Assembly (NCBI GenBank): GCA_017540455.1
Contig: JAFYAZ010000034.1
Span: 25,146-89,145 of the forward strand
Direction of reading: 5' to 3'
Length of the DNA stretch: 64,000 bases
DNA from: Bacilli bacterium
Lineage (GTDB): Bacteria; Bacillota_I; Bacilli_A; RFN20; CAG-826
Position 1 is the first letter of the stretch. Every line of letters begins with the position of its first letter. Shown here one piece after another: positions 7,131-64,000 of this stretch. Position numbers and translations under genes: made by a program. A model generated the notes under the pieces. The model was not told where the DNA came from, searched no databases, and saw only the letters and a program-made list of their open reading frames with translations.

Positions 7131-7204
7131 TGGTGCCCCGCCGCAGAGTCGAACTACGAATTGATCCTTACCATGGATCTGTTATGCCGTTTAACTAGCG
7201 GGGC
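7131..7204 (-). tRNA. tRNA-Thr (anticodon GGU), CCA encoded
   Basis: Reverse complement is GCCCCGCTAGTTAAACGGCATAACAGATCCATGGTAAGGATCAATTCGTAGTTCGACTCTGCGGCGGGGCACCA. It folds as a cloverleaf with a 7-bp acceptor stem, D stem GUUA/UAAC, anticodon stem GATCC/GGATC with loop AUGGUAA, and a TTCGACT T-loop. Confidence 0.85.
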
Positions 7205-45418: not shown

Positions 45419-46201
45419 TTAGAAACCCCTGTTTTTCAAATCCTCACACAAGGTTGAGTAGAATCCGTAGATCCTCTCCTTCTTGCTTTTCTTCGCCATG
45501 AAATCGAAGACGTCGCTATGGGAGATGGAACCTTCTAGCATGAGGCCCTTATATTCGCCGAATTTGGCGGACTCTTTGCTGACTAGACCGTCGCTAGGCT
45601 CCCCTTTCTCGACGTGATGGCAAAAGGCTAACGGAATGCCAAGAACGAAATCGTCCCTGCTTCTTTCAAGCGTGGCCGAATAGCTTTGGCAGTAGATTCC
45701 GCTTCCAGCCTTGAGAATCACCTCTTCAACAGGATTCCAGGAAGCGAGCTGCTCTAATGATTTTAAGGAATTTGGATGCCTATCTCCGAGGATGCGGTAC
45801 CAAAGGTTGACGAAGAAGGCCATGACATGGAGCATCCAGCGAGGGAGTTTCGCCACTCCTCTGGCGACTGGGGTTCCTTTATGTGGGGTGCACATGGTCG
45901 TAAAGCTTGCGACATGTTCCGCCATATCTAGCTTCTCAATCATGTATTTGGCATCAAGGCCGCCTTTTGAGTGGGCGATGATGTTCACTTTGTCGACTTT
46001 GTTCTCTTCGAGAATCTTGAGGATTTCCTTCTTAAGGACCTCTGCGTTGTGCTCAATTGGGGCAAAAGCCTCAACTTTGCTTCTAGATACGACAAAACCT
46101 TCCTCTTTGAGTTTGCGTTCAATCTGACCAAAAGGCTTCATGAAGATGCAGTCTCTGACGGCAAGGCCATGCACAAGGATGATTGGATAAGCGGTTTGCA
46201 T
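45419..46201 (-). CDS. alpha/beta-hydrolase esterase/lipase
   Basis: 260 aa. Nucleophile elbow AHSKGG. Small-lipase-like N-terminus (ILVHGLAV). Confidence 0.7.
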   Translation of the reverse strand: MQTAYPIILVHGLAVRDCIFMKPFGQIERKLKEEGFVVSRSKVEAFAPIEHNAEVLKKEILKILEENKVDKVNIIAHSKGGLDAKYMIEKLDMAEHVASFTTMCTPHKGTPVARGVAKLPRWMLHVMAFFVNLWYRILGDRHPNSLKSLEQLASWNPVEEVILKAGSGIYCQSYSATLERSRDDFVLGIPLAFCHHVEKGEPSDGLVSKESAKFGEYKGLMLEGSISHSDVFDFMAKKSKKERIYGFYSTLCEDLKNRGF

Positions 46202-46264: not shown

Positions 46265-46296
46265 AGACCGCCCATTTTAAGGGCGGTCAATTTTTT
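46265..46296. terminator. terminator after fhs, i.e. end of the pur-fhs operon
   Basis: GACCGCCCATTTTAAGGGCGGTC flanked by T-tracts on both strands. Confidence 0.7.
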
Positions 46297-46304
46297 TGTG
46301 GGGA

Positions 46305-47969
46305 TTAGAATAAGCCAGAGATGTTGCCATCTTCATCGACGTCGATGCTATTGGCGGCTGGAACTTTTGGAAGTCCTGGCATGGTCATGATTTCGCCAGT
46401 TAAGGCAACGATGAAGCCTGCGCCTGCGCTGACTTTGATGTTTCTGACCGTGACCTCGAAGTTCTCTGGGGCGCCAAGTTTGTTCTGGTCATCAGAGAAT
46501 GAGTATTGGGTCTTGGCAACGCAGATTGGGAGTTTTCCGAATCCGAGCTCTTCAAGCTTAGCGGCCTGCTTTTTGGCGGTTGGAGTAAGGACTACGCCAC
46601 TGCCATGGTAGATCTTCTTGACGATCTGATCGAGTTTCTCTTCGATCGAAGCGTCGAGTTCATAGCTGAAGCTGAAGTTATTTGGTTCTTCGCAAAGGCG
46701 GACGACTTCTTTAGCAAGTTCGATGCCACCATTGCCACCATCGGCCCAAACGGTCGAGAGCTTGACGTTGACGCCGAGCTCTTTGCATTTCCTCTCGACA
46801 AGTTCGATTTCGGCATCGGTGTCGGTTGGGAAGCGGTTGATTGCGACGACGCATGGAAGATGATAGACGGAGACGATGTTGTCGATGTGTCTAAGAAGGT
46901 TTGGAAGGCCTTTTTCAAGGGCGACGAGATCTTCCTTGCCAAGTTCGGTCTTCTTTAAGCCACCGTGCATCTTAAGGGCTCTAACGGTTGCGACCATGAC
47001 GACACAGTCAGGTTTGAGACCGGCTAAACGGCATTTGATGTCGAGGAACTTCTCAGCGCCTAAGTCAGCACCGAATCCGGCTTCTGTGACGGTGTAGTCA
47101 GCAAGCGACATAGCCATGTTCGTGGCGGTGACGGAGTTGCAGCCATGGGCGATATTGGCGAATGGGCCACCATGGACGAAGCATGGGGTGCCTTCGAGGG
47201 TCTGAACGAGGTTTGGCTTGATGGCGTCTTTGAGAAGAGCGGTCATCGCGCCGACGGCGTGGAGGTCTTTGGCGGTGACTGGTTTGTCGTCATAGGTGTA
47301 GGCGACGACCATTCTGCCGATTCTTTCCTTTAAGTCGTTGATGGAGGTGGCAAGGCAGAAGATAGCCATCATCTCAGTTGCGACGGTGATGTCGAATCCA
47401 TCTTCTCTTGGGGTGCCATTGGCTTTTCCGCCAAGGCCATCGACGACGAATCTAAGCTGGCGATCATTCATATCAAGGCATCTCTTGATGACGATTTTGC
47501 GGTTATCGATTCCTAAAGGATTGCCTTGCTGAATTGAGTTATCGAGAAGAGCGCAAAGAAGGTTGTTGGCTGTGGTGATGGCGTGGAAGTCACCGGTGAA
47601 GTGAAGGTTGATGTCTTCCATTGGGACGACTTGGGCGTATCCACCGCCGGCAGCGCCGCCTTTGATACCAAAGACTGGACCAAGAGATGGTTCTCTCAAA
47701 GCTGCGATTGTGTTCTTGCCGATCTTTCTAAGACCATCGGCAAGGCCAATGCTTGTTGTGGTTTTGCCTTCGCCCGCAGGGGTTGGGGTGATCGCGGTGA
47801 CGAGGATCAACTTGCCTTTCTTGCGGCCTTCCTTTAAGAGGGCGTAGTCAACCTTGGCTTTGTATTTGCCATAAGGCTCGAGGTATTTATCGTCGACTCC
47901 GGCGACTTTTGCGATTTCGAAGATTGTCTTCTTCTCGCACTGTTGAGCGATTTCGATGTCTGTAAGCAT
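46305..47969 (-). CDS. fhs: formate--tetrahydrofolate ligase
   Basis: 554 aa, full-length FTHFS ([14 protein letters not shown]...[11 protein letters not shown]). Strong SD. Only 22 nt separate it from the purL stop with no intervening hairpin, so it is probably co-transcribed. Confidence 0.9.
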
Positions 47970-47991
47970 CTTTTTTTCCTCCTAATTTTTT

Positions 47992-50900
47992 TTATTTGAA
48001 GAACTCAACAGCGGACTTAAACATTTCCATGTCGTATTCGCCGTAGACGTTCTTATATAATCCATTTCCGATACGTTCGCTATGACCCATCTTGCCAAGG
48101 ACTCGGCCATCGAACGAGGTAATGCCTTCGACGGCTAAGACTGAGTTATTTGGGTTGTAACGTATATCGTCGGTTGCTTCACCATTGAGATTAACATATT
48201 GCGTAGCAATTTGCCCATTTTTTGCAAGTTCTCTTACGAGATCCTCACTTGCGAAGAAGCGGCCTTCGCCATGGGAGATGGCAACGTTATAGACGTCGCC
48301 GACCTTGGTTCTCGCTAACCATGGTGATTTATTTGATGCGATTCTGGTTCTAACAATCTTGGACTGGTGTCTAGCGATTGTGTTGAAGGTAAGGGTTGGG
48401 AAGGATTCGTCAGTATCCATGATCTTGCCGTATGGAACGAGACCGAGTTTGATGAGGGCTTGGAAGCCATTGCAGATGCCAAGCATGAGGCCTTCTCTAT
48501 TCTCAAGAAGGTCGGTGACCGCGTTCTTGATTGCTTCGTTTCTGAAGAAAGAAGTGATGAATTTAGCGGAACCGTCTGGTTCATCGCCACCGCTGAATCC
48601 GCCTGGAACGAAGATGATCTGACTCTTCTTCACTTCTTCGGCGAAGTCTTTGATGGACTTATTGAGGTGTTCGGTATCGAGGTTGTTGATGACGAAGATC
48701 TTGACTTTTGCCCCTGCGTCCCTCATCGCCTTAGCGGAATCGAACTCGCAGTTGGTTCCTGGGAAGACTGGGATGAGGACTCTCACTTCGTCATAGTGTT
48801 TCGAAGCGTGGGCCTTGGATTCTGCCTTGTAGGAGAAAGACTCATAGATCTTGCTCTCTTTCTTTTCGAGGGTTGGGTAAACGCTTTCGAGCTTGCCTTC
48901 GTATAAGGCGTCGATGTCGCTAACCGCGACTTCTTCGTTTTTATAGACGTATTTGGCGTCGTTAGTGACTTCGCCAACATAGAGGCCATCGAGTTTTTCG
49001 TTAGTTTCGACCATGAATGAACCATAGGCATAGCCATAGATGTCACTAAGGGTCAATTCGTCATTGAACTTGAAGCCATAGCCATTGCCGATAGCGGCTT
49101 TCATGACGGCTTCGGCGACACCGCCAAGGGTTGGGGTGAAGCAGGATTTGATTAAACCTTTTGAATTAAACTCTTCGATTCTCTTGAAGAGAGCTTTGAC
49201 GCTTTCGGCGTTTGGAAGGCCATTCTCATCATAAGATGGCTTTAAGAGATAGACTTTGCTGCCCGCCTCTTTGAATTCGTTGGTGAGGACTTCATTGACG
49301 TTACCCGTGGTGACGGCGAAGGAGACAAGGGTTGGAGGAACGTCGAGTTTCTCGAATGATCCTGACATCGAGTCTTTGCCACCGATTGCGGCAACACCGA
49401 AATCGAGCTGGGCTTTGAAGGCGCCAAGGAGAGCGCTTAAAGGCTCGCCCCAACGTCTGGCGTCTTTCATCGGCTTCTTGAAGTATTCCTGGAAGGTGAG
49501 GTAGACGTCTTCGAATTTGGCGCCCGCAGCAATGAGCTTGGAGATGCTTTCGACGACGGAAAGATAGGCGCCTTGATATGGGTTCTTCTCCATGATGAAT
49601 GGGTTATATCCCCATGACATGAAGGAGCAATCGTCGGTGTGTTTTTCTTCAACCGAGATCTTGGTGACCATTGTCTGGACAGGGGTTCTCTGGTATTTGC
49701 CACCAAATGGCATGGTGACGGCACCTGCGCCGATGGTTGAGTCGAATCTCTCGCTGAGACCGCGCTTCGAGCAGATGTTGAGATCGCCAGCGAGGGCTTT
49801 GAGATTTGAAGCGAAATCCCCTTCCACCTCTTTCTTGTAGTCAAGAGGCTTGGAGGCAAGGATGTCGATATGCTTCTCAGCGCCGTTGGAATTGAGGAAT
49901 TCACGGCTGACATCGACGATGACCTTGTCGTTCCATTTCATGACAAGGCGAGGGTTCTTGGTAACGGTAGCAACCACGGTTGCTTCGAGGTTTTCTTTGT
50001 TAGCGATAGCAAGGAAGGCGTCGACGTTTTCTTTTTCGACGACCACTGCCATTCTTTCTTGCGATTCGCTGATAGCGAGTTCGGTGCCATCAAGGCCTTC
50101 GTATTTCTTTGGGACGGCATTGAGGTTGATCGATAAGCCATCCGCGAGCTCGCCGATTGCGACCGAAACGCCGCCGGCACCGAAGTCGTTGCAGCGTTTG
50201 ATCATTTGGCAGGCTTCTTTGTTTCTAAAGAGCCTTTGGAGTTTTCTTTCTTCTGGGGCGTTTCCTTTTTGGACTTCCGCGCCGCAGGTTTCGACTGAGT
50301 GGGCGTTATGGGCTTTGGAGGAGCCGGTTGCGCCACCGACGCCATCTCTGCCGGTTCTACCACCAAGAAGGATGACGACATCGCCATCGACTGGGCATTC
50401 GCGTCTGACGTTCTCGGCTGGGGTTGCGGCGATGACTGCGCCGATTTCCATACGTTTTGCGACGTATCCTGGATGATAGATCTCATCAACGATGCCAGTA
50501 GCTAAGCCGATCTGGTTGCCATATGAGGAATAGCCGGCCGCAGCGGTTTGGACGAGCTTACGCTGTGGGAGTTTGCCAGGGATGGTCTCACTGAGCGGGA
50601 CGGTTGGGTCGCCAGCGCCGGTGACACGCATCGCGGCATAGACGTAGCTTCTGCCTGAAAGAGGGTCACGGATTGCGCCGCCGATACAGGTAGCCGCGCC
50701 GCCGAAAGGTTCGATTTCGGTTGGGTGGTTATGGGTCTCGTTCTTGAAGAGGAGGAGCCATTTCTCGGTTTCACCATCGACCTTGACGTCGATCTTGACG
50801 GTGCAGGCATTGATTTCCTCCGATTCATCGAGCTTTTGGAGCATGCCTCTCTTCTTGAGGACTTTGGCAGCGAGGGTGCCAATATCCATGAGGTTGACTG

Positions 50901-51678
50901 GTTTGGTTCTGTTGAGCTCTTTGCGGCACTCAATGTATTCTTCGTAGGCCGCTTGGATCTCTTTGTCTTCGAAAGAGACGTTGTCGATCGTGGTTAAGAA
51001 GGTCGTGTGACGGCAGTGATCGGACCAATAGGTGTCGATCATCTTGATCTCGGTGATGGTTGGGTCTCTTTGCTCGCTTCTGAAGTAGGCTTGGCAGAAA
51101 GCGATGTCATCGAGGTCCATGGCTAAGCCGTTTTCCTTGACGAAGGCATCAAGCTCATCTCTCGATTTGCCAATGAATCCAGTCAAGGTTTTGACTGTCG
51201 TTGGGATGACGTATTGGGTTTTGAGGGTACTAGGAAGCTCTAAGCTCGCTTCTCTGGCCTCGACAGGGTTAATGACGTATTTCTTGACGGCGGCCACTTC
51301 TTCTTTTGAGAGCTCGCCTTCTAAGATATACACCTTAGCGGTTTTGATGATTGGCTTATCGATGACCGCCATGATCTGGATGCACTGGGCGGCGGAATCG
51401 GCTCTTTGGTCGAATTGGCCTGGGAGGTATTCGACGGCGAAGACTAAGCCTTTTGAAGCTGGGAGCTCAGTGTAGACATCATCAAGCTGAGGTTCGGAAA
51501 GGACGGTGCGGATGGCTTTCTCTAAGACTTTGGCGTCGATGTTCTCAAGGTCGTAGCGGTTAAGGATCCTAAGCGATTTGAGCCCTTTGATGCCAAGAAG
51601 GTTCTTGAATTCGCTATACAAAGCGTTCGCTTCATTCTGAAGACCTGGCTTTTTCTCTACGTAAACTCTATTGACCAT
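47992..51678 (-). CDS. purL: phosphoribosylformylglycinamidine synthase, single-chain large form
   Basis: 1228 aa with an N-terminal PurS-like region, an AIRS/FGAM synthetase core, and a C-terminal glutamine amidotransferase. Confidence 0.9.
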   Translation of the reverse strand: MVNRVYVEKKPGLQNEANALYSEFKNLLGIKGLKSLRILNRYDLENIDAKVLEKAIRTVLSEPQLDDVYTELPASKGLVFAVEYLPGQFDQRADSAAQCIQIMAVIDKPIIKTAKVYILEGELSKEEVAAVKKYVINPVEAREASLELPSTLKTQYVIPTTVKTLTGFIGKSRDELDAFVKENGLAMDLDDIAFCQAYFRSEQRDPTITEIKMIDTYWSDHCRHTTFLTTIDNVSFEDKEIQAAYEEYIECRKELNRTKPVNLMDIGTLAAKVLKKRGMLQKLDESEEINACTVKIDVKVDGETEKWLLLFKNETHNHPTEIEPFGGAATCIGGAIRDPLSGRSYVYAAMRVTGAGDPTVPLSETIPGKLPQRKLVQTAAAGYSSYGNQIGLATGIVDEIYHPGYVAKRMEIGAVIAATPAENVRRECPVDGDVVILLGGRTGRDGVGGATGSSKAHNAHSVETCGAEVQKGNAPEERKLQRLFRNKEACQMIKRCNDFGAGGVSVAIGELADGLSINLNAVPKKYEGLDGTELAISESQERMAVVVEKENVDAFLAIANKENLEATVVATVTKNPRLVMKWNDKVIVDVSREFLNSNGAEKHIDILASKPLDYKKEVEGDFASNLKALAGDLNICSKRGLSERFDSTIGAGAVTMPFGGKYQRTPVQTMVTKISVEEKHTDDCSFMSWGYNPFIMEKNPYQGAYLSVVESISKLIAAGAKFEDVYLTFQEYFKKPMKDARRWGEPLSALLGAFKAQLDFGVAAIGGKDSMSGSFEKLDVPPTLVSFAVTTGNVNEVLTNEFKEAGSKVYLLKPSYDENGLPNAESVKALFKRIEEFNSKGLIKSCFTPTLGGVAEAVMKAAIGNGYGFKFNDELTLSDIYGYAYGSFMVETNEKLDGLYVGEVTNDAKYVYKNEEVAVSDIDALYEGKLESVYPTLEKKESKIYESFSYKAESKAHASKHYDEVRVLIPVFPGTNCEFDSAKAMRDAGAKVKIFVINNLDTEHLNKSIKDFAEEVKKSQIIFVPGGFSGGDEPDGSAKFITSFFRNEAIKNAVTDLLENREGLMLGICNGFQALIKLGLVPYGKIMDTDESFPTLTFNTIARHQSKIVRTRIASNKSPWLARTKVGDVYNVAISHGEGRFFASEDLVRELAKNGQIATQYVNLNGEATDDIRYNPNNSVLAVEGITSFDGRVLGKMGHSERIGNGLYKNVYGEYDMEMFKSAVEFFK

Positions 51679-52949
51679 TAGTCTCTCTCCTTTGCTTTGA
51701 GTGCTCTAGCGCCGATATCGTGACGGTAGAAGCTGTTATCGAAATGGATTTTGTTAACTTTTTCGTATGAGGCTTTGATGGCGCACTTAAGGCATCCGCC
51801 AACTGAGGTGACGCCTAAGACGCGGCCACCATTCGTGAGAAGCTTATCGCCATCGAGTTTGGCGCCTGCGAAATAGATATCGTTTTTGACATCTTCATCA
51901 CAGGTGATCTCATAGCCCTTCTCATAATGGGTTGGGTATCCTTTTGAGGCCATGATGACGCAGCAGGCCGATTTGTCGCTCCATTTGACTTCAGTCTTAT
52001 CAAGCGTTCCGTTAGTGGTCGCCATCATGATGGTGAGAAGGTCGCTTTCTAGAAGCGGGAGGACGACTTGGGCCTCTGGGTCACCGAAACGGCAATTGTA
52101 TTCGATTACCTTCGGTCCGTCTTTCGTGATCATAAGGCCGAAATAGAGGCAGCCTTTGAAGGTTCTTCCTTCTTTGTTCATGGCTTCGATCGTTGGAAGG
52201 AAGATCTTTTCCATGCACTCTTTAGCGACTTCTTCGGTGTAATAAGGGTTTGGGGCGATTGTGCCCATGCCGCCGGTATTTAGGCCCTCATCGTTATCAA
52301 GGGCGCGCTTGTGGTCCATGCTGGAAACCATTGGCTTAAGGGTCTTGCCATCGGTGAAGGAAAGGACGGAAACCTCTGGTCCTTCTAAGAATTCCTCGAT
52401 GACGATATGATCGCCCGAGGCACCGAACTGGTGATTGCTCATGGCGGAGATGACGGCTTGCTTAGCTTCTTCCCTAGTCATAGCAATGACAACGCCCTTG
52501 CCAAGAGCGAGGCCATCGGCTTTGACGACGGTTGGGATTGGGCACTTTTCGACATACGCAAGAGCCTTATTGACGTCATCGAAGACCTCATAGGCGGCGG
52601 TTGGGATGCCGTATTTCTTCATTAGGTTCTTGGAGAAGACTTTGCTGCCTTCGATGATGGCGGCGTTCTTCTTTGGGCCAAAGCAAGGGATGCCTTCTTT
52701 TTCGAGAGCATCGACCATGCCTAAGACAAGCGGATCATCTGGGGTGACGACGACATAGTCGACCTTGTTTGCCTTCGCGAAAGAGACGACTCCTTCGATG
52801 TCGGTTGCCGAGCCGCTCACTAAAACCGCGTCATCCTTCATGCCTCCATTGCCTGGATAGGCATAAATGGTTTCGACGTTTTTGTTTTCTTTGATTTTCT
52901 TGATGATGGCGTGTTCTCTGCCACCGCTTCCAACGACTAAGACTTTCAT
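51678..52949 (-). CDS. purD: phosphoribosylamine--glycine ligase
   Basis: 423 aa. MKVLVVGSGGREHAI, ATP-grasp. Confidence 0.9.
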   Translation of the reverse strand: MKVLVVGSGGREHAIIKKIKENKNVETIYAYPGNGGMKDDAVLVSGSATDIEGVVSFAKANKVDYVVVTPDDPLVLGMVDALEKEGIPCFGPKKNAAIIEGSKVFSKNLMKKYGIPTAAYEVFDDVNKALAYVEKCPIPTVVKADGLALGKGVVIAMTREEAKQAVISAMSNHQFGASGDHIVIEEFLEGPEVSVLSFTDGKTLKPMVSSMDHKRALDNDEGLNTGGMGTIAPNPYYTEEVAKECMEKIFLPTIEAMNKEGRTFKGCLYFGLMITKDGPKVIEYNCRFGDPEAQVVLPLLESDLLTIMMATTNGTLDKTEVKWSDKSACCVIMASKGYPTHYEKGYEITCDEDVKNDIYFAGAKLDGDKLLTNGGRVLGVTSVGGCLKCAIKASYEKVNKIHFDNSFYRHDIGARALKAKERD

Positions 52950-52964
52950 CGGTTATCCCTAAGA

Positions 52965-54149
52965 CTAGTGATGGAATAAACGCATTCCGGTGAAGGCCAT
53001 GACCATATCGTATTTGTCAGCGCATTCAATGACGAGGTCGTCTCTCACGGAACCGCCAGGTTCAGCGATATAGGAGACGCCAGAGCGCTTGGCTCTTTCG
53101 ATATTGTCGAAGAACGGGAAGAAAGCGTCGCTGCCTAAAGAGACGCCGGTGATGGTCGAAAGATAGGCTTTCTGCTCTTCGCGGGTGAATCTTTCTGGCT
53201 GTTTGGTGAAGTATTTCTGCCAGATTCCGTCAGCGCAGACATCCTCTTCGTTTTGGTTGATGTAGCCATCGATGACGTTATCTCTGTCTGGACGCTTGAT
53301 GGTTGGGAGGAATGGGAGGTTAAGGACCTTGTCATGCTGACGGAGGAAGAAGGTGTCGGCCTTGCTGCCGGCTAAGCGGGTGCAGTGAATTCTCGATTGC
53401 TGACCGGCGCCGACGCCGATAGCCTGGCCTTTGTAGGCGTAGCAGACGGAATTCGATTGGGTGTATTTGAGGGTGATTAAAGCGATGATGAGATCTTGGA
53501 CCGCGCTTTCTGGGAGATTTTTGTTCTTGGTGACGATATTGGAAAGAAGTTCGCGGTTGATCTTGAAGTTGTTTCTGCCTTGCTCGAAGGTGATGCCATA
53601 GACCTGCTTGGTCTCCTTTTCTTGTGGGACGTAGCTTGGGTCAATCTTAACGACGTTATAGGTGCCGTTTCTCTTGGCTTTGAGGACTTCGAGGGCTTCT
53701 GGAGAGTAGCTAGGAGCAATGATGCCGTCGCTGACTTCGCGTTTGACCATCAAAGCGGTTGTGAGGTCAACTTCATCGCTGAAGGCGACCCAATCGCCGA
53801 ATGAGCACATTCTGTCGGTGCCCCTGGCTCTGGCGTAAGCGCAGGCGACAGGAGATTCGTCTAAGCCTTTGACGTCATCGACGAAGCAGGCCTTCTTGAG
53901 TTTCTCATCAAGAGGGAGGCCGATGGCGGCGCTGGTTGGAGAGACATGCTTGAAGGAAGCGCAGGCAACGTATCCAAGGGCTTCTTTGAGCTCTTTGACG
54001 AGCTGGTAAGAGTTGAAGGCGTCAAGGAAGTTGATGTAGCCTGGGCGGCCATTGAGGATCTCGATTGGGAGATCTTCTCCGTTAGCCATGTAGATCTTCG
54101 ATGGCTTCTGATTTGGGTTGCAACCGTATTTGAGTTCGAATTCTTTCAT
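52965..54149 (-). CDS. purH: AICAR transformylase-only PurH (lacks the N-terminal MGS-like IMP cyclohydrolase domain)
   Basis: 394 aa. Begins at the AICARFT domain (ELKYGCNPNQ ~ LRYGENPHQ). Conserved GVGAGQQSRI and SDAFFPF...EPGGSVRDD...FTGMRLFHH blocks. Confidence 0.8.
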   Translation of the reverse strand: MKEFELKYGCNPNQKPSKIYMANGEDLPIEILNGRPGYINFLDAFNSYQLVKELKEALGYVACASFKHVSPTSAAIGLPLDEKLKKACFVDDVKGLDESPVACAYARARGTDRMCSFGDWVAFSDEVDLTTALMVKREVSDGIIAPSYSPEALEVLKAKRNGTYNVVKIDPSYVPQEKETKQVYGITFEQGRNNFKINRELLSNIVTKNKNLPESAVQDLIIALITLKYTQSNSVCYAYKGQAIGVGAGQQSRIHCTRLAGSKADTFFLRQHDKVLNLPFLPTIKRPDRDNVIDGYINQNEEDVCADGIWQKYFTKQPERFTREEQKAYLSTITGVSLGSDAFFPFFDNIERAKRSGVSYIAEPGGSVRDDLVIECADKYDMVMAFTGMRLFHH

Positions 54150-54163
54150 TGTTTTTCTCCTTT

Positions 54164-55597
54164 TTAGACTTTCAAAGTAGCGGTGATTGTCTCACCTTGG
54201 TATTTCTTAAGAAGTGGGTCGACAAAGTCGGCGATAAATTCGACGACTTGGGAAGCGGCTCTACCAGTGTATTTGGCAGGATCGAGCTCTTTTTCGATGT
54301 CTTCCTTTTTGAGGTTGAACATCGGGTCGGCGACGAGTCTGTCGATGAGGTCGTTTGGTTTGCCATTCATCTTGACTTCGTAGGCGGCCGCTTGCGAGTG
54401 GACGCGGATCGCTTCATGGAGCTCTTGACGGTTGCCACCGCGTTTGACGGCTTCCATCATGATGTTCTCGGTGGCCATGAATGGAAGTTTTTCCATGACA
54501 CGGCGACGGATGACGTTCTCATAGACGACGAGGTTCGATGAGATGTTGATGTAGATGTTGAGGATGGCATCCACCGCTAAGAAAGCCTCAGCGACGGAGA
54601 CACGCTTATTGGCGCTGTCATCAAGGGTTCTTTCAAACCATTGGGTGCCAGCGGTAAGACCTGGGTTGATCGAGTCAACGATGACGTATCTCGCAAGGGA
54701 AGAGATTCTTTCGCTTCTCATTGGGTTGCGTTTGTATGGCATCGCGGAACTGCCGATCTGGGTCTTCTCAAATGGCTCTTCAATCTCTTCGAAGGATTGG
54801 AGGATACGGAGGTCATTCGAGAATTTGTAGGCGGATTGCGCAAAACCCGAAAGGACGCTTAAGAAATAGCTATCGACCTTGCGGGAATAGGTCTGTCCTG
54901 AAACAGGGACGCAGGCTTCAAAGCCCATATCGGTTGCGATGAGTTTCTCAAGTTCTTTGACTTTGGCTTCATCACCGCCGAAAAGATCCATGAATGAAGC
55001 TTGGGTTCCTGTGGTGCCTTTTTGGCCAAGGAGTTTGAGGTTGTCCATTTGATAGACGAGGTTTTCGACGTCCATCACGAGCTCATTCATCCACAAAGTG
55101 GCCCTCTTGCCGACCGTGGTAAGCTGGGCTGGCTGGAGATGGGTGTAAGCAAGGCAAGGAAGGTCTTTGTACTTGAGGGCAAAGGCTTTGAGGTTGCTTA
55201 AGACCTGAGCGGCTTTCTTAAGGACGATCTTGCTTGCTTCCCTAAGGATGATGACGTCGGTGTTATCGCCAACATAGCAGGATGTGGCGCCTAAATGGAT
55301 GATGCCCGCCGCTTTTGGGCATTGCTGTCCGTAAGCGTAGACGTGAGACATGACGTCATGCCTGACGATTCTTTCTCTTTCTTCAGCGACATCGTAGTTG
55401 ATGTCACTCACGTGGGCTTCGAGCTCAGCGATCTGCTCATCGGTGATATCTAAGCCTAACTTCTTTTCGCTTTTGGCCAAAGAAACCCAGAGTTTTCTCC
55501 AAGTCTGGAACTTGAAATCGTTAGAGAAAACGTACTGCATCTCTTCGCTTGCGTAGCGGGTCGAGAATGGTGAAATGTATCCTTTTCTTTCTTCCAT
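54164..55597 (-). CDS. purB: adenylosuccinate lyase
   Basis: 477 aa. Lyase_1 fold with a C-terminal ADSL domain. Confidence 0.85.
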   Translation of the reverse strand: MEERKGYISPFSTRYASEEMQYVFSNDFKFQTWRKLWVSLAKSEKKLGLDITDEQIAELEAHVSDINYDVAEERERIVRHDVMSHVYAYGQQCPKAAGIIHLGATSCYVGDNTDVIILREASKIVLKKAAQVLSNLKAFALKYKDLPCLAYTHLQPAQLTTVGKRATLWMNELVMDVENLVYQMDNLKLLGQKGTTGTQASFMDLFGGDEAKVKELEKLIATDMGFEACVPVSGQTYSRKVDSYFLSVLSGFAQSAYKFSNDLRILQSFEEIEEPFEKTQIGSSAMPYKRNPMRSERISSLARYVIVDSINPGLTAGTQWFERTLDDSANKRVSVAEAFLAVDAILNIYINISSNLVVYENVIRRRVMEKLPFMATENIMMEAVKRGGNRQELHEAIRVHSQAAAYEVKMNGKPNDLIDRLVADPMFNLKKEDIEKELDPAKYTGRAASQVVEFIADFVDPLLKKYQGETITATLKV

Positions 55598-55607
55598 CTT
55601 TGCCTCC

Positions 55608-56327
55608 TTATTTGTTTTTATTGATAAGTCTTGTGGTGACTTCTTTGGTAGCTAAGTCAACGTATCTGACGTAGAGGGAGATCTTGTTGTTCTCGTTTAA
55701 GCCAGTCCAGATATCGTTAGCGAATTCGTCGATATCGTTAGGGACGGCCACTCTTTCAGGCTCGCCTTGGAAGGTTGGGATTGGGTTTCCATCGGTGACG
55801 TAGGTATGGATGAAATGTCCAAGTCCTGGGAGGGCGTCATATTCGAAATAGTAACGGTTGCAGGAGGTTCCTTTCTCGTCAGCGGATTTGAGGATCGACA
55901 TCTCATAGGAGAAATCGTTTCCCTCGAATTTGAGAACGCCGGAGATGCGTGGGGTGAGGTTAGGGAAGTCTGGCTCAAAGGCGCGGCTCTTGAGGGAGCA
56001 CTTCATGCATTTGCCGGCTTTAAGGCCTTCGTAGATGGTATCGGTCTGATCGCCGTTGGTGACAATCATCTTGTTGTCGATGTCTCTCACCGCCGCATAG
56101 ATGATAAGCGATGGGTCCTGGACTTTTGAGGCGTCGAATGGTTCGGTGTAGAGGACGTTGTCCTTGAAGGTGAAGACTCTGTTTCTTGAGTTCTCGCTTC
56201 TGCCCATGATGAAGTAAGCGAAAGCCGCTTTCTTGCCATCACTAGTTTTGCCAATGATGATGCCACGTCCGACATATGGGTTGTCCTTGATGAGTTCCTT
56301 TATGTTGCTAACAGCGTAGATGTTCAT
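55608..56327 (-). CDS. purO: PurO-type (archaeal-like) IMP cyclohydrolase
   Basis: 239 aa. YVGRGIIIGKTSDGKKAAFAYFIMGRSENSRNR, TNGDQTDTIYEG and TPRISGVL match the PurO (IMP_cyclohyd, PF07826) core as recalled from Methanocaldococcus PurO. Confidence 0.65.
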   Translation of the reverse strand: MNIYAVSNIKELIKDNPYVGRGIIIGKTSDGKKAAFAYFIMGRSENSRNRVFTFKDNVLYTEPFDASKVQDPSLIIYAAVRDIDNKMIVTNGDQTDTIYEGLKAGKCMKCSLKSRAFEPDFPNLTPRISGVLKFEGNDFSYEMSILKSADEKGTSCNRYYFEYDALPGLGHFIHTYVTDGNPIPTFQGEPERVAVPNDIDEFANDIWTGLNENNKISLYVRYVDLATKEVTTRLINKNK

Positions 56328-56942
56328 TTACTTTTCCTCCAATAACTGTTTTGAGACCATTTCAACCGCTTGAGGGAGAATCTTCCATTCGGCTTCTTCC
56401 ATGACGCGGCGCTGTAAGATTTCTGGGGTGTCCCCTTCTTTTACTTCGACCGCCTTCTGAAGGATGATCTTTCCTCCATCGGTGATCTCGTTGACGAAGT
56501 GGACTGTGGCGCCTGTGACCTTTACTCCTTTTGCAAGGGCGGCCTCATGAACATGAAGTCCATAGAAGCCATCGCCGCAGAAGGATGGGATGAGGGATGG
56601 GTGAACGTTGATGATTCGGTTAGGATATTCCTTTACGAATCTCTCTGAGAGAATGGCTAAGAATCCGGCAAGAACGATGAGGTCGATGTCTCTTTCCTTT
56701 AGAGCCTTCAAGAGAGCGTCTTCGAAGGCTTCTTGGGAACCGAGTTCTTTCTTTAGGAGGACTAGCGATTCGATGTTATGGTTCTTCGCTCTTTCTAAGG
56801 CATAGACGTCTTTTTTGTTTGAGACGACGAGGGTGACCTTTCCAGAAAGGATGATTCCTTTGTCGATTGCGTCAAGAATCGCCTGGAGGTTGGTGCCTCC
56901 CCCTGAAACGAAGACTGCGATGTTAGCTAATTCTTTTTTCAT
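56328..56942 (-). CDS. purN: phosphoribosylglycinamide formyltransferase
   Basis: The track ORF extends to 57020. The start is placed at MKKELANIAVFVSGGGTNLQAIL (56942), 4 nt after the purM stop. NHGSL-type formyltransferase. Confidence 0.85.
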   Translation of the reverse strand: MKKELANIAVFVSGGGTNLQAILDAIDKGIILSGKVTLVVSNKKDVYALERAKNHNIESLVLLKKELGSQEAFEDALLKALKERDIDLIVLAGFLAILSERFVKEYPNRIINVHPSLIPSFCGDGFYGLHVHEAALAKGVKVTGATVHFVNEITDGGKIILQKAVEVKEGDTPEILQRRVMEEAEWKILPQAVEMVSKQLLEEK

Positions 56943-56946
56943 TGTC

Positions 56947-57996
56947 TTAGAGATTGATTTCGATCTTTTCGTCGCTAGTTGATTTTTCGATATGGCCGAT
57001 GACGTAAGCGTCTTCGCCATGGGCTTTTAAGATGGCAAGGGATTTCTCGACGTCCTCTGGTTTGACGATGATGGACATGCCGACACCCATGTTGTAGGTG
57101 TTGAACATATCTCTTTCTGGGATGTTTCCCTTTGACTGGATGAGTTTGAAGATCGGGAGGACCTTGACGTCTTCTTTCTTGATGACGACTTTAAGTCCGT
57201 CTGGGATGGAGCGAGGCATATTCTCATAGAAGCCTCCTCCCGTGATATGGGAGATGCCTTTGACCTCGACTTCATCAAGAAGGGCGAGGACTGGTTTGAC
57301 ATAGATTTTGGTTGGGGTGAGAAGGGTCTCGCCAAGAGACTTTCCACCAAGTTCTGGGAGAGGTTTCTTGATGTCAGCGTTCTCAATATCGAAGACTTTT
57401 CTGACAAGGGAGAAGCCGTTGGAGTGAACGCCGCTAGATGGGAGAGCGATCATGACATCCCCTGCCGCCATCTTCTTGTTATCGATGACTTTGTCTTTGT
57501 CGACGATGCCGACTGAGAAACCGGCGAGGTCATATTCATCAACTGGGTAGAACCCTGGCATTTCTGCCGTTTCGCCACCGACGAGCTCGCTATGAGCCAT
57601 GACACAGCCATCGCAGATGCCAGAAACGATATCGGCGATCTTCTCTGGGTAGTTCTTGCCACAGGCGATGTAGTCAAGGAAGAAGAGAGGCTTGGCGCCG
57701 CAGCAGATGACGTCATTGACGCACATGGCGACGCAGTCGATGCCGACGGTGTCATGCTTGTCCATCAAGAAAGCGATCTTGAGTTTGGTGCCAACGCCAT
57801 CGGTTCCTGAAACGAGGATTGGATGTTTGTAGCCTTCGAGGTCAAGGGTGAAAAGTCCGCCGAATCCGCCAATATCGTCTGGTTTGGCCTGGACGATGGT
57901 TCTGGCGATATGAGCCTTCATGAGCTCAACGGCCTTGTATCCTGCCGTGATGTCTACGCCTGCAGCTGCGTATGATTCTGATTTTGAGTTTTTCAT
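56947..57996 (-). CDS. purM: phosphoribosylformylglycinamidine cyclo-ligase (AIR synthetase)
   Basis: 349 aa. AIRS N- and C-terminal domains. Confidence 0.9.
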
Positions 57997-58011
57997 GTTT
58001 CTCTCCCCTAC

Positions 58012-59430
58012 TTATTCTTTATCTGAGATCTTGTTTTCAAATCTTGATTTTCTTGTGTCGCTAGGAATCGCCGTTGGGTAACTTCCATCGAAGCAAGCCG
58101 TGCAGCATTCCCCTCCCGCGATGTCCTTGACGTTTTCGACCGAGAGGAAGCCTAGCGAATCCGCGCCGATGATCTTCGCGATTTCCTCCACCGAATGGTG
58201 GCAGGCGATGAGGTAATCCCTCGAATCGATGTCCGTGCCATAGTAGCAAGGATTGAGGAAGGTCGGCGACGATATCCTCATGTGGATTTCTTTGGCGCCC
58301 GCATCGCGAAGAAGCTTGATTGTCTTCTTGCTTGTCGTGCCTCTGACGATTGAGTCATCGATGACCACCACTCGCTTGCCTTTGACGACCGAGGAGACAG
58401 GATTGAGCTTGAGTTTGACTTTGTCTTCTCTGTTATCTTGGCCGGGAGCGATGAACGTGCGGCCGATGTATTTGTTTTTGATATATCCGATTTCGTAAGG
58501 AATGCCCGATTCCTTTGAATAACCGATCGCGGCATCAAGACCGGAATCCGGGACACCGATGACGATATCGGCTTCGACTGGATGGGATTTTGCGAGGTAT
58601 TCGCCCGCTTTGACCCTGGCGGAATGGACGGAGATGCCATCGATCACTGAGTCAGGTCTGGCGAAATAGACGAATTCGAAGGCGCAGATGTGCTTCTTTT
58701 GCTTGCCGCAGTGCGTCTTGATTGAGTGAACGCCGTCCTTGTCGAAATAGACGACTTCGCCTGGGAGGACGTCACGGACGAACTTGGCGCCGACGGAATC
58801 GAGGGCGCAGGTTTCGCTAGCGGCGATATAGGTGCCATCGTCTCTCACGCCATAGCAAAGAGGCCTGAAACCGAATGGGTCACGGGCGATGACGAGTTTT
58901 GTCGGTGACATCAAAACAAGAGAATAGGAACCCTTGATGGTGTACATCGCGCGTTCCACCGCCTCTTCGATTGAGTTCGAGGTGATTCTTTCTCTGGTGA
59001 CTATGTAGGAAATGACCTCAGTGTCTGAGGTTGTATGGAAGATTGAGCCTTGGAGTTCAAGCTGGGAGCGGAGTTCCAAGGAGTTGGTGATATTGCCATT
59101 GTGGGCGATGGCGATATGGCCATGGATATGATTGACGACAAGAGGCTGGGCGTTATGCCTATCTGTGCAGCCTGTGGTGCCATATCTGACATGACCGACG
59201 GCGATGTTTCCTTGTCCAAGGCGGGCAAGGTGGCGTTCGGTGAAGACCTCTTCGACAAGGCCTAAGTCTTTGTATGTCGAGAAAACGCCATCGTCACAGA
59301 CGACGATGCCGCAGGACTCTTGTCCACGGTGCTGGAGGGCGAATAAACCGTAGTATGCGGTTCTGGCGACGTCTTGCTTTGCTGGCGAATAGACGCCGAA
59401 GATTCCGCATTCTTCATGTAACGATGACAT
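58012..59430 (-). CDS. purF: amidophosphoribosyltransferase (canonical, with propeptide and Cys1)
   Basis: 472 aa. MSSLHEE propeptide followed by CGIFGVYS...[10 protein letters not shown], PRTase DDSIVRGTT, and C-terminal Fe-S cysteines [10 protein letters not shown]. Confidence 0.9.
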
Positions 59431-59462
59431 TCTCTTACCCTCCTTCCCTTATGTTTGTTTGC

Positions 59463-59957
59463 TTATTTGTTAAAGGTTTCTGCGATTTCCTTATCTTTTT
59501 CGAGGGCGGCTTTTGCTCCTTCTTCTCTAAGGGCAACGAGCTTGGCGTCAAGCTCTTTGTCGCTTAAGGCGAGGATTTCCGCGGCTAAGAGGGCAGCGTT
59601 CTTCGCTCCGTCGATCGCGACGGTCGCGACTGGAATCCCGGAAGGCATCATGACGGTTGAGAGAAGGGCGTCCATGCCATCAAGCGCGGCGGATTTGCAA
59701 GGGATACCAATGACTGGAAGGGTGGTTCTTGCAGCGATTGCGCCCGCTAAGTGAGCGGCCATGCCCGCTGCTGCGATGAGGACCCCGAAGCCGTTTGCCT
59801 TTGCGCTAGCGGCAAAGGTCCCCGCTTCTTCTGGAGTTCTATGAGCCGAATAGACGTGAGCCTCATAAGGAACGCCAAGGGCATCGAGTTGCTCGAATGC
59901 TTTCTTGAGGATTGGAAGATCGCTCGCGCTTCCCATGATGATTCCGACTTTCTTCAT
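59463..59957 (-). CDS. purE: N5-carboxyaminoimidazole ribonucleotide mutase
   Basis: 164 aa. GSASDLP...AHLAG motifs. First gene of the operon with SD GGAGGAAAACCAAT-ATG. Confidence 0.9.
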
Positions 59958-60017
59958 ATTGGTTTTCCTCCAAAAAATAAAAAGACACGCTGCTAGAAAA
60001 TGACGACAAAGATCAAT

Positions 60018-60115
60018 TCTACGAGTGTGCCCAGACGGTCGACGTAATTACTGAATTTTTATTATTGCTCCACTGCGTTAATTCGCATCTACCGTCAGTC
60101 ACAATAATACTTTCG
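60018..60115 (-). promoter_or_regulatory. candidate ZTP (pfl-motif) riboswitch in the purE leader, with overlapping terminator-like expression platform down to about 59975
   Basis: Minus-strand transcript is GUAUUAUUGUGACUGACGGUAGAUGCGAAUUAACGCAGUGGAGCAAUAAUA...(19-nt linker)...CGACCGUCUGGGCACACUCGUAG. It has a P1 helix AUUAUUG/CAAUAAU and a UGACUG-ACGG segment that resembles the conserved UGACUGGCG. A P2 hairpin UGCG-aauuaa-CGCA is followed by GUGGAGC. The 3' CCGUC-UGGGCA can pseudoknot with GACGG and shows covariation relative to GGCG/CGCC. A downstream imperfect hairpin CACACUCGUAGAA...UUCUAGCAGCGUG is followed by UCUUUUUAUUUUUU. Confidence 0.45.
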
Positions 60116-60190
60116 ATTTTCAGTACATGGATAATTTATTTTATTTATAAAAGATATTCAATGTAATGCTCTCTGAAAGTGGTTACATAA

Positions 60191-60217
60191 AGAAAAAAGG
60201 CCCCTTTTGAGAGGCCT
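60191..60217 (-). terminator. terminator of the ACT/UPF0210 operon
   Basis: Minus strand reads AGGCC-ucucaaaagg-GGCCU followed by UUUUUUCUUU. Confidence 0.55.
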
Positions 60218-60228
60218 AATTGTAAGCG

Positions 60229-61602
60229 TTAGTTCTTAAGAGAATTAAGAGGTGCCGGTATCTGACCGCCACGGTCGATGAAGGTCTTTGGGGACTGACG
60301 TCTGATGGCCATGATCGGAGCATGGCCAAGAAGCCCGCCGAAATTGAGCTCTTCCCCTTCTTTTCTGCCGATGGCTGGGATGACTCTCACCGCGGTTGTC
60401 TTGGAGTTGATCATGCCGATAGCCGCTTCATCGGCGATAAGGGCGGAAATCACTTCTGGAGTGGTGTCTCCTGGGATGACGATCATATCCAAACCGACTG
60501 AGCAAACAGCGGTCATCGCTTCAAGTTTCTCAATGCAAAGAGCGCCCGACTTCGCGGCGTCGATCATGCCTTGGTCTTCGCTCACCGGGATGAAAGCGCC
60601 TGACAATCCACCGACTCTCGAAGAGGCCATGACGCCTCCTTTTTTGACGGCGTCGTTAAGGATGGCAAGGCAGGCTGTCGTGCCGACTCCACCGCACTGT
60701 TCTAAGCCCATTTCCTCTAAGATGTGGGCGACCGAATCGCCAATCGCTGGGGTTGGGGCAAGGGAAAGGTCGACGATGCCGAATTCGACACCGAGCATCC
60801 TTGACGCTTCAACACCGACGAGTTGACCCATTCTCGTGACTTTGAAGGCGGTCTTTTTGATGACGTCGGCGATCTCGGAGATCGAAGCGTCTTTTGGGCA
60901 TTTGGCAACGGCTGCGCGGACTGCGCCTGGGCCGCTCACGCCTACATTGATGACGCAATCGGCTTCACCAATGCCATGGAAGGCGCCAGCCATGAATGGG
61001 TTATCCTCTACGGCATTGCAGAAAATAACCATCTTGGAGGCGGCGATGCATTCTCTATCTTTGGATAATTCGGCTGCTTCGAGGACTTTTTGGCCCATGA
61101 TTTTGACGGCGTCGAGATTGATGCCGGCACGGGTTGAGCCAACGTTGACCGAAGAGCAGACGAAAGAGGTTTCGTTTAAGGCCCTAGGAATCGAATCGAT
61201 GAGTTCTTTGTCGCCAGGAGCGAAGCCCTTTTGGACAAGGGCGCTATATCCGCCAATGAAATCGATGCCGATGTCTTTGGCGACTTTATCTAAGGTTTTC
61301 GCGTATAGGACAGGGTCTCCCCCAGAAACGCCGACAAGGATGGAGATTGGGGTGACCGAAACGCGCTTGTTGACGATCGGGATGCCGTATTTCTTGGAGA
61401 TCTCGTTTCCGACTTTCACGAGGTCTTTCGCATATCTATAGATTTTGTTGTAGACCTTCTCGCATGACTTATTGATATCGTTATCGATGCAATCGACTAG
61501 CGAAATGCCCATCGTGATGGTTCTCACGTCGAGGTTCTCTTCCTCGATCATGCGTATGGTCTCAATAATCTCGTCTCTATTGTTGATCATTTTTCTCACC
61601 AA
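60229..61602 (-). CDS. UPF0210 (DUF711) family protein
   Basis: 457 aa. The N-terminus [22 protein letters not shown] and overall length match the UPF0210 family of unknown function, conserved in Firmicutes and archaea. Confidence 0.7.
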
Positions 61603-61872
61603 TTAGATCTTGTGCATGAGGTTGAAGATGTCTTCATGCATGCATTCGATCTTGAGGTTCTTCTCCTCACCCACTTTGTGGATCTCATCAACGAAGGAGG
61701 TGAAATCGATCGTCAGGTTATCGATGCTGACAACCATGTACATTGTAAAGAGCTCACCGATGATGGTTTGGTTGACGTCTTGGATGTTGACTTTGTATTC
61801 TGCGCATTTGGTTGCGACAGCGGCTAAAATACCGACTGTATCTTTGCCAACGACTGAAATGATAGCTTTCAT
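61603..61872 (-). CDS. ACT-domain protein (UPF0237 family)
   Basis: 89 aa. MKAIISVVGKDTVGILAAVATKCAEYKVNIQDVNQTI. The canonical partner gene sits immediately upstream of UPF0210. Confidence 0.75.
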   Translation of the reverse strand: MKAIISVVGKDTVGILAAVATKCAEYKVNIQDVNQTIIGELFTMYMVVSIDNLTIDFTSFVDEIHKVGEEKNLKIECMHEDIFNLMHKI

Positions 61873-62050: not shown

Positions 62051-63454
62051 ATGGGCGGATTTTTCGGAGTTGTCAGCAAAAGCGATTGCGTATTTGATCT
62101 TTTCTACGGTGTCGACTACCACTCACATTTAGGCACGAGAAGAGGCGGTTTGGCCGTTTGGAAGGATGGCAAAATCAGCAAGGCGATCCACAAGATCGAG
62201 AACTCCCCTTTCAGAACCAAATTCGAGAAAGAAGCCATGGAGATGAAAGGCAACATGGGCATCGGATGCATTTCCGACTTCGATTCCCAGCCTCTCGTCG
62301 TGAGATCGAACCACGGCACTTACGCCATCACCTGCGTTGGCAAAATCAACAACGCCAAAGAACTCGAAGAGAAATTCCTTAGCAATAACGCCCACTTCCT
62401 TGAAACCTCAACCGGCGACATCAATAACACCGAGCTTGTCGCTAGCATCATCAACCAAAAGAAAAACCTCATCGAAGGTTTGCAATATGTCCAAGAAGTC
62501 ATTGAAGGCTCAATGACCGTCCTCCTTCTTAACGAAAAGGGCATCTACTGCTCTAGAGATAAATATGGCAGGACCCCTATCGTCATCGGCAAGAAAGACG
62601 GCGCTTATTGCGCTTCATTTGAATCTTTCGCCTTCCTTAATTTAGGATACACGCCTTATAAGAATCTCGGCCCAGGCGAAATCGCCGTCATCAATGCCGA
62701 GACAGGCCTTAGGACCTTAGTCGAACCAGGGAACAAGATGCGAATCTGCACCTTCCTTTGGATCTACTATGGCTACCCGTCAACCGTCTACGAAGGACTC
62801 TCAGTCGAGAAACTCAGGTGCAAGTGCGGCGAATTCATCGCGAAACGCGATAACGTCAAACCTGATTCCGTTGCCGGCGTCCCTGATTCCGGCCTTGGAG
62901 CCGCAATCGGCTACTCAAACGCCTCAGGAATCCCGTTCCAAAGACCATTTGTCAAATACACCCCTACTTGGCCTCGTTCCTTCATACCGACGATGCAGAC
63001 CAAACGCAACCTCATCGCCCACATGAAGCTCATCCCGATCCACGATTTGATCGAAGGCAAGAAGCTTCTTCTCATCGATGACTCGATCGTCAGAGGCACC
63101 CAGATGAGAGAGACGACGGAATTCCTATATAAGTCCGGCGCCGCTGAGGTTCATGTCCGTTCCTCATGCCCTCCAATCCTTTATGGCTGCAAATACCTCA
63201 ACTTCTCCGTTTCGACTAGCGATATGGACCTTATTGCAAGACGCGCCATCATGGAACTTGAAGGAAACGTTGAGCCAGAAACGATCAAGAAGTATCTCAA
63301 CCCAGATGGCAAAGAATACGCCAACATGGTCGAGTGCATTCGCAAAAAGCTCAACTTCACATCCCTTGGCTACATGAGACTCGATGATCTCAAAGAAGCC
63401 GTCGAGATGGATCCTGAAAAGATCTGCACCTACTGCTGGGATGGCAGAGAATAA
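62051..63454 (+). CDS. amidophosphoribosyltransferase paralog lacking the N-terminal catalytic cysteine (PurF-like)
   Basis: 467 aa and full-length collinear with PurF. Begins MGGFFGVVSKSD, where canonical PurF has (M)CGI(F/V)G. An in-frame TAA 15 nt upstream excludes a longer N-terminus. It retains the PRTase motif [13 protein letters not shown] and Fe-S ligand-like cysteines (ICTFLW, SSCPP, CTYCWDG). SD AAAGGG lies 9 nt upstream. Confidence 0.75.
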   Translation: MGGFFGVVSKSDCVFDLFYGVDYHSHLGTRRGGLAVWKDGKISKAIHKIENSPFRTKFEKEAMEMKGNMGIGCISDFDSQPLVVRSNHGTYAITCVGKINNAKELEEKFLSNNAHFLETSTGDINNTELVASIINQKKNLIEGLQYVQEVIEGSMTVLLLNEKGIYCSRDKYGRTPIVIGKKDGAYCASFESFAFLNLGYTPYKNLGPGEIAVINAETGLRTLVEPGNKMRICTFLWIYYGYPSTVYEGLSVEKLRCKCGEFIAKRDNVKPDSVAGVPDSGLGAAIGYSNASGIPFQRPFVKYTPTWPRSFIPTMQTKRNLIAHMKLIPIHDLIEGKKLLLIDDSIVRGTQMRETTEFLYKSGAAEVHVRSSCPPILYGCKYLNFSVSTSDMDLIARRAIMELEGNVEPETIKKYLNPDGKEYANMVECIRKKLNFTSLGYMRLDDLKEAVEMDPEKICTYCWDGRE

Positions 63455-63503: not shown

Positions 63504-64000
63504 TTATTTGAGAGGCTTGCCGGTTAAGAGTTCGTAACCCTGGAGATATTTAGCGATGGTTTTCTCAACGACCTCTTCTGGAAGGGTCCAGTCATGATCA
63601 TGGGACTTAAGCCAATCTCTGGCGAATTGCTTATCGAAGGATGGCTGGCTCTTTCCTCTTTCGTATCCTTCAAGAGGCCAGAATCTCGATGAATCTGGGG
63701 TGAGCATTTCATCAGCGACGACAACTTCACCATTCTCATCGAGGCCGAATTCGAATTTGGTGTCGGCGATGATGATGCCTTTTGTGAGGGCGTAGTCAGC
63801 GCATTTCTTATATAGGGCGATGGTGTATTCCTTTAATTTGGTCGCGTATTCAAGGCCTTTGCCTGGGAATTCCTTTTCAAGAACCTCAACCGATCTTTCG
63901 AAGGAGATGTTCTCGTCGTGATCGCCGATCTCCGCTTTGGTGGATGGGGTGTAGATCGGTTCAGGAAGCTTATCGGATTCCACTAAACCTTTTGGAAGGG
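63504..64000 (-). CDS. purC: SAICAR synthetase, C-terminal part (N-terminus beyond window end)
   Basis: The reading frame stays open to position 64000. ...[24 protein letters not shown]...TPDSSRFW matches the PurC core. The track start at 63983 is only a GTG artefact. Confidence 0.85.

Follow-up and report, generated by a model that had tools for sequence, protein, structure and literature searches.

A predicted ZTP riboswitch, an ordinary member of its family, in the leader of a ten-gene purine operon

The leader of purE carries an RNA element that, judged from its sequence, is an ordinary member of the known ZTP riboswitch family, with nothing new about it. We consider it very probable that this predicted riboswitch works as a transcriptional ON switch of a ten-gene purine and formyl-tetrahydrofolate operon, which lies directly downstream on the minus strand of the window (that is, the whole stretch of 64,000 nucleotides that was analysed). 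Every feature by which the sequence allows membership in the family to be tested was found, and the kind of element is one already known. Its importance beyond a correct annotation is small, and it raises no new question; for those who engineer ZTP switches, it is one more natural, A/U-rich sequence variant.

An earlier note on this DNA had recognized a probable ZTP riboswitch here and predicted a match to RF01750, the ZMP/ZTP riboswitch model of Rfam. The model matched the minus strand at 60022-60112 with 49.2 bits, above its gathering score of 39, and the alignment covered model positions 1-86 of 86, the full length, which supports the proposed identity. The E value was 5.4e-05 when the whole 64-kb window was compared with 4227 Rfam families, and 3.4e-07 in a permissive Rfam scan of the 401-nt leader region (59900-60300); the match is far beyond chance. 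In this region, the permissive scan gave no other RNA family above 19 bits, which is the level of noise. The aptamer is detectable by any Rfam-based annotation pipeline, and at gathering thresholds the scan of the whole window returned three matches, RF01750 and two tRNAs. Neither Rfam nor a covariance model built from relatives (E values up to 10) revealed a further ZTP copy in the window. Within its group, the aptamer of the window has the lowest score, since the relatives scanned with Rfam reached 51.6-65.4 bits. The ZMP/ZTP riboswitch, or pfl motif, is reportedly also the subject of work by Kim, Nelson and Breaker from 2015. As for the tRNAs, those for Gln and His were found by both ARAGORN and Rfam; a third, tRNA-Thr (GGT) at 7131-7204 on the minus strand, was called by ARAGORN and not reported by the Rfam tRNA model at the gathering threshold.

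The aptamer and its parts are the following.

60022-60112, minus strand: ZTP (ZMP/ZTP, pfl-motif) aptamer, full-length RF01750 match
60101-60109, minus strand: 5' strand of P1, UAUUAUUGU, from the Rfam alignment
60092-60096, minus strand: J1/2 pseudoknot strand GACGG, complementary to CCGUC at 60038-60034
60074-60087, minus strand: P2 hairpin UGCG-AAUUAA-CGCA, 4 bp, followed by GUGGAGC, from the Rfam alignment and the fold
60060-60068, minus strand: 3' strand of P1, GCAAUAAUA, from the Rfam alignment
60044-60059, minus strand: variable linker between the subdomains, A/U-rich, 16 nt, an insert in the Rfam alignment
60029-60043, minus strand: P3 hairpin GUC-GACCGUCUG-GGC, which holds CCGUC, U60033 and G60032, from the sequence and the Rfam alignment

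The 5' subdomain shows the helix-junction-helix arrangement of P1, J1/2 and P2. P1 is formed by nine pairs (60109-60101 with 60068-60060), and the AUUAUUG/CAAUAAU helix described in the earlier note is part of it. The 5' core UGACUGACGG, with the UGACUG-ACGG previously pointed out, the small P2 hairpin and the GUGGAGC sequence are all present on the minus strand, as is the short A/U-rich linker (60059-60044), the length of which varies between ZTP members (PMC7337938). The 3' element GUCGACCGUCUGGGCAC contains the CCGUC sequence, which, as had been noticed, is the exact complement of GACGG (60038-60034 with 60096-60092), so that the pseudoknot has five Watson-Crick pairs. P3 consists of three pairs, GUC with GGC, closing a 9-nt loop, and the loop-3 residues U60033 and G60032 lie inside the invariant CUGGG block. 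According to the literature summarized by Strobel et al. (bioRxiv 10.1101/521930), the loop-3 U pairs with ZMP and the next G is the floor of the pocket; the roles of the contact nucleotides were taken second-hand from this source and from Binas et al. The conserved ZMP-contacting nucleotides, on which the earlier note had made its proposal depend, are present in the alignment. Among the 29 columns conserved in at least 90% of 65 related aptamers, 27 are matched by the window, and the two that mismatch (60083, 60078) belong to a single pair, the apical pair of P2, in which G-C is replaced by A.A.

This organization, P1-J1/2-P2 followed by a variable linker and P3, with a pseudoknot between J1/2 and loop 3, is that of the ZMP/ZTP family (RF01750; Weinberg et al. 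2010, PMC2864571), and so are the ACUG.CGG and CCG.CUGGGC blocks and a terminator overlapping the 3' part. Compared with the family, the differences are minor: a P2 with one pair fewer, a U.G wobble in P3, a linker that exceeds the Rfam consensus by 6 nt, and stems with an unusually high A/U content (41% G+C).

To place the element among its relatives, PurE was used to fetch 80 species-representative genome loci and 80 metagenome loci from the matches listed. All of them come from Clostridia-like gut or rumen organisms, and no PurE with more than 76% identity appeared among the matches listed in the searches of genomes and metagenome contigs. Of the first 20 loci scanned with Rfam, nine had an RF01750 match immediately before purE (51.6-65.4 bits). 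A covariance model built from these hits was then run on the 160 purE loci and detected the aptamer 50-150 nt upstream of the gene in 39 of the 80 genome loci and 34 of the 80 metagenome loci; in other words, the aptamer occupies this place in about half of the related loci. The purE aptamers of the relatives (loci L006-L080 and L086-L163) resemble that of the window in this position, in the A-U pair of the pseudoknot and in a terminator that starts at GGGC, whereas their P2 has the canonical GUGG...CCAC form, which the P2 of the window does not. In one of these organisms, Clostridiales bacterium UBA6386 (L018), two ZTP aptamers are found back to back on opposite strands, at 2607-2699 (minus) and 2857-2950 (plus), apparently controlling divergent operons.

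The alignment of 41 sequences (the window and 40 relatives) revealed that 94.3% of the cells of the proposed helices hold standard pairs; sliding the partners by 1-3 columns lowered this share to 34-46%. Changes on both sides were observed in all eight P1 pairs that were counted and in four of the five P2 pairs, and in the pseudoknot every cell (100%) is paired. At the second pair of the pseudoknot, 38 sequences have A-U and three have G-C, with no mismatch in any of them. The covariation of the pseudoknot relative to the consensus, which had been inferred from the window, is thus real as a switch between A-U and G-C, but the A-U form is not unusual, being the majority form in the relatives. 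The U.G wobble of P3 is shared by the window and six relatives (7 of 41).

Downstream of the pseudoknot, the following elements of a putative expression platform were recognized.

59983-60032, minus strand: bulged terminator hairpin, 17 bp, fold of -15.1 kcal/mol, with the 5' arm starting on the GGGC of P3
59972-59982, minus strand: terminator U-tract UUUUUAUUUUUU (U5AU6), directly after the hairpin, from the sequence and the fold
59967-59971, minus strand: Shine-Dalgarno sequence GGAGG, 9 nt before the purE ATG (59957) and downstream of the terminator, from the sequence

The 3' element had been described as overlapping the 5' arm of an imperfect, U-tailed hairpin, and we observed exactly this. 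The first six pairs of the terminator join GGGCAC with GUGUCU, and given that its 5' arm includes G60032 together with the GGC of the 3' strand of P3, P3 and the terminator are mutually exclusive. A terminator hairpin starting at the same GGGC was present in the nine relatives that were checked (9 of 9). The terminators of pfl motifs overlap the 3' region, and in the family the binding of the ligand keeps the terminator from forming (PMC2864571; PMC7337938; bioRxiv 10.1101/521930). The layout predicted here is that of the classic transcriptional ON switch of the ZTP family. The biochemically characterized pfl switch of Clostridium beijerinckii (Strobel et al., bioRxiv 10.1101/521930) shares with the window the GACGG/CCGUC pseudoknot, with its native A26:U94 pair, and the transcriptional ON layout in which a bulged terminator invades P3. 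However, the terminator of C. beijerinckii also pairs with the pseudoknot strand (91:119, 94:114; bioRxiv 10.1101/521930), whereas that of the window competes with P3 alone, because its stem does not begin until the G that follows the loop-3 U. The two also differ in their target, which is pfl in C. beijerinckii and, as predicted, the whole pur operon in the window.

The terminator hairpin taken alone is more stable than most shuffled sequences (z = -2.59; an equally good fold in only 4 of 200 shuffles). Its stem is long and much interrupted, with two G.U pairs closing the base, and it is weaker than the stems of the relatives, which are G+C-rich and nearly perfect (-19 to -42 kcal/mol for the whole tail, vs -17 in the window). 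A simple terminator scan did not report the hairpin (59983-60032), and the whole 88-nt tail folds no better than its shuffles (z = -0.07). From these observations, termination may be leaky. The sole non-standard feature of the leader is a perfect 7-bp complementarity between its extreme 5' part and the linker, UACUGAA (60125-60119) with UUCAGUA (60055-60049) on the minus strand, a putative clamp helix which appears in the minimum-energy fold; 7 bp were reached by only 1.3% of the linker shuffles. No equivalent was observed in any of the 40 related aptamers, and a function of this clamp is unproven. An exact-protein look-up recovered five metagenome contigs in which the leader is 100% identical, and since these copies are identical and no relative exceeds 76% PurE identity among the matches listed, the features specific to this leader are without comparative support. 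A tuned variant, in which the clamp helix, the short P2 and the long, bulged, G.U-closed terminator allow a high basal read-through of an essential purine operon that ZMP only boosts, is conceivable, and we regard it as unlikely. If it were true, the clamp could fasten the linker to the transcript's 5' end and pre-organize both subdomains.

The same weaknesses could be read as signs of a decaying relic that keeps the family match, has lost switching and leaves the operon constitutive through a weak hairpin; the lowest Rfam score of the group, the loss of the apical P2 pair, a P3 of 3 bp including a wobble and the weak, bulged terminator would all agree with it. We consider it very unlikely, given that the positions of the ligand pocket and the pseudoknot are all intact, that the P3 wobble recurs in relatives, that the hairpin with its 11-nt U-tract is still significantly structured, and that the native terminator of C. 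beijerinckii is functional although bulged, its bulges tuning the response (Strobel et al., bioRxiv 10.1101/521930).

The Shine-Dalgarno sequence (59971-59967) lies beyond the U-tract; it is not sequestered and does not pair with the aptamer. Other riboswitch classes include expression platforms that act on translation, and this, together with the imperfect terminator stem, would favor a genuine ZTP aptamer that acts through translation initiation or Rho-dependent termination instead of intrinsic termination. Such an output is highly improbable here, since GGAGG is located 11 nt beyond the hairpin without complementarity to the aptamer, and the 11 U/A residues that immediately follow the P3-overlapping hairpin reproduce the terminator layout of all the relatives checked. 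Whole pur operons of Bacillus-type Firmicutes are under the control of PurR and purine riboswitches, but control of this operon by a guanine/adenine riboswitch, by PurR and a PurBox or by a leader peptide, with an incidental ZTP match, is scarcely credible: the purine riboswitch model RF00167 gave no match in 59900-60300 even at E values up to 10, the permissive scan of the leader yielding only noise below 19 bits; the PurBox pattern AWWWCCGAACWWT, allowing two mismatches, had 28 hits, none informative and none in the promoter region, against about 40 expected by chance; and the leader contains only short, mechanical open reading frames, none of them credible as a leader peptide. The absence of a purine aptamer and of a PurBox, as well as of a family that fits better than RF01750, is in line with what the earlier note had anticipated.

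The start of the transcript bears on how much of the region upstream of purE belongs to the leader. Two elements are relevant.

60198-60217, minus strand: terminator of the upstream DUF711 gene, inside the 271-nt interval formerly taken as the leader
60138-60167, minus strand: promoter-like site ATTACA-18-TAAAAT, from a consensus scan only, 9/12 matches

All the elements listed for the 271-nt leader of purE were found inside this interval, but its upstream part corresponds to the DUF711 terminator and the promoter-like site. Given the positions of this terminator (60217-60198) and of the promoter-like site (60167-60138), the transcribed leader is probably about 170 nt long. The promoter-like site is the sole one in the region, with a match no better than chance there; its position fits that of a TATAAT-like box present in the relatives 15-25 nt upstream of P1, and from it transcription would start near 60131. 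The gene directly upstream of the riboswitch (60229-61602, minus strand) is annotated as DUF711 / PRK05313 'hypothetical protein', and an 89-aa open reading frame (61603-61872, minus strand) abuts it upstream.

For the transcriptional ON switch that we favor, the following sequence of events can be proposed. From a start probably near 60131, the nascent RNA would fold P1-J1/2-P2 first and then the small P3 hairpin, and CCGUC in loop 3 would pair with GACGG in J1/2, the resulting pseudoknot creating the pocket for the ligand. Under a shortage of 10-formyl-tetrahydrofolate, ZMP/ZTP would accumulate and bind between the pseudoknot and P3, where ZMP is expected to pair with U60033 and stack on G60032. 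The bound ZMP would hold P3 closed, so that GUGUCU could not capture GGGCAC; the terminator would fail and the RNA polymerase would continue into purE...fhs. If ZMP is absent, P3 would be invaded by the 3' arm, the hairpin 60032-59983 would form before UUUUUAUUUUUU and transcription would stop. The higher levels of purH, purN and fhs obtained by read-through would relieve the metabolic block.

The genes placed under this predicted control, and the terminator that closes them, are the following.

46305-59957, minus strand: regulated operon of ten genes, gaps between open reading frames of at most 32 nt, from NCBIfam and Pfam
59463-59957, minus strand: purE, start codon at 59957, NCBIfam/Pfam
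58012-59430, minus strand: purF, NCBIfam/Pfam
56947-57996, minus strand: purM, NCBIfam/Pfam
56328-about 56924, minus strand: purN, NCBIfam/Pfam
55608-56327, minus strand: PurO-like IMP cyclohydrolase, Pfam PF07826, 3.1e-60
54164-55597, minus strand: purB, NCBIfam/Pfam
52965-54149, minus strand: purH, short form with AICAR formyltransferase only, NF005492, 669 bits
51678-52949, minus strand: purD, NCBIfam/Pfam
47992-51678, minus strand: purL, large single-chain form, TIGR01857
46305-47969, minus strand: fhs (formate-tetrahydrofolate ligase), NCBIfam/Pfam
46266-46288, minus strand: strong intrinsic terminator closing the operon after fhs, 8-bp stem with 7 G-C pairs and a T-run

The matches of the operon genes to NCBIfam and Pfam are above the cut-offs, with the PurO-like protein passing that of Pfam only. 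The gene order purEFMN-purO-purB-purH-purD-purL-fhs had been read as a typical ZTP regulon, and it fits, since the pfl motif is associated with purH, fhs and other genes of purine synthesis (PMC2864571). Two assignments were refined. The purO gene is backed by PF07826, but with the archaeal PurO equivalog models the protein does not reach the cut-off (62 bits vs 150); purH is present, in the short form. The last two steps of purine synthesis are split between this short purH and the separate IMP cyclohydrolase-like protein. The ZTP family is already described from the context found here, a Clostridia-like anaerobe with a pur operon that includes purH and fhs. According to the prediction, the whole de novo purine pathway and fhs of this uncultured Clostridia-like bacterium are wired to ZMP, a folate-stress signal, and not to a sensor of the purine end product. 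About half of the relatives share the arrangement, and this is of use in modelling the metabolism of anaerobes from gut and rumen.

Some observations concern the surrounding genes. The terminator at 46266-46288 is bidirectional, with T-runs on both strands, and lies between fhs and an alpha/beta-hydrolase gene (45419-46201). The C-terminal part of purC (SAICAR synthetase) was found at 63504-64000 on the minus strand, outside the operon under predicted ZTP control; its reading frame is open to the end of the window, which therefore truncates the gene. A purF-like paralogue of 467 aa (62051-63454, plus strand), distinct from the true purF of the operon, is convergent with purC; it matches GATase_7 and scores 191.6 bits with TIGR01134, well below the cut-off of 350.
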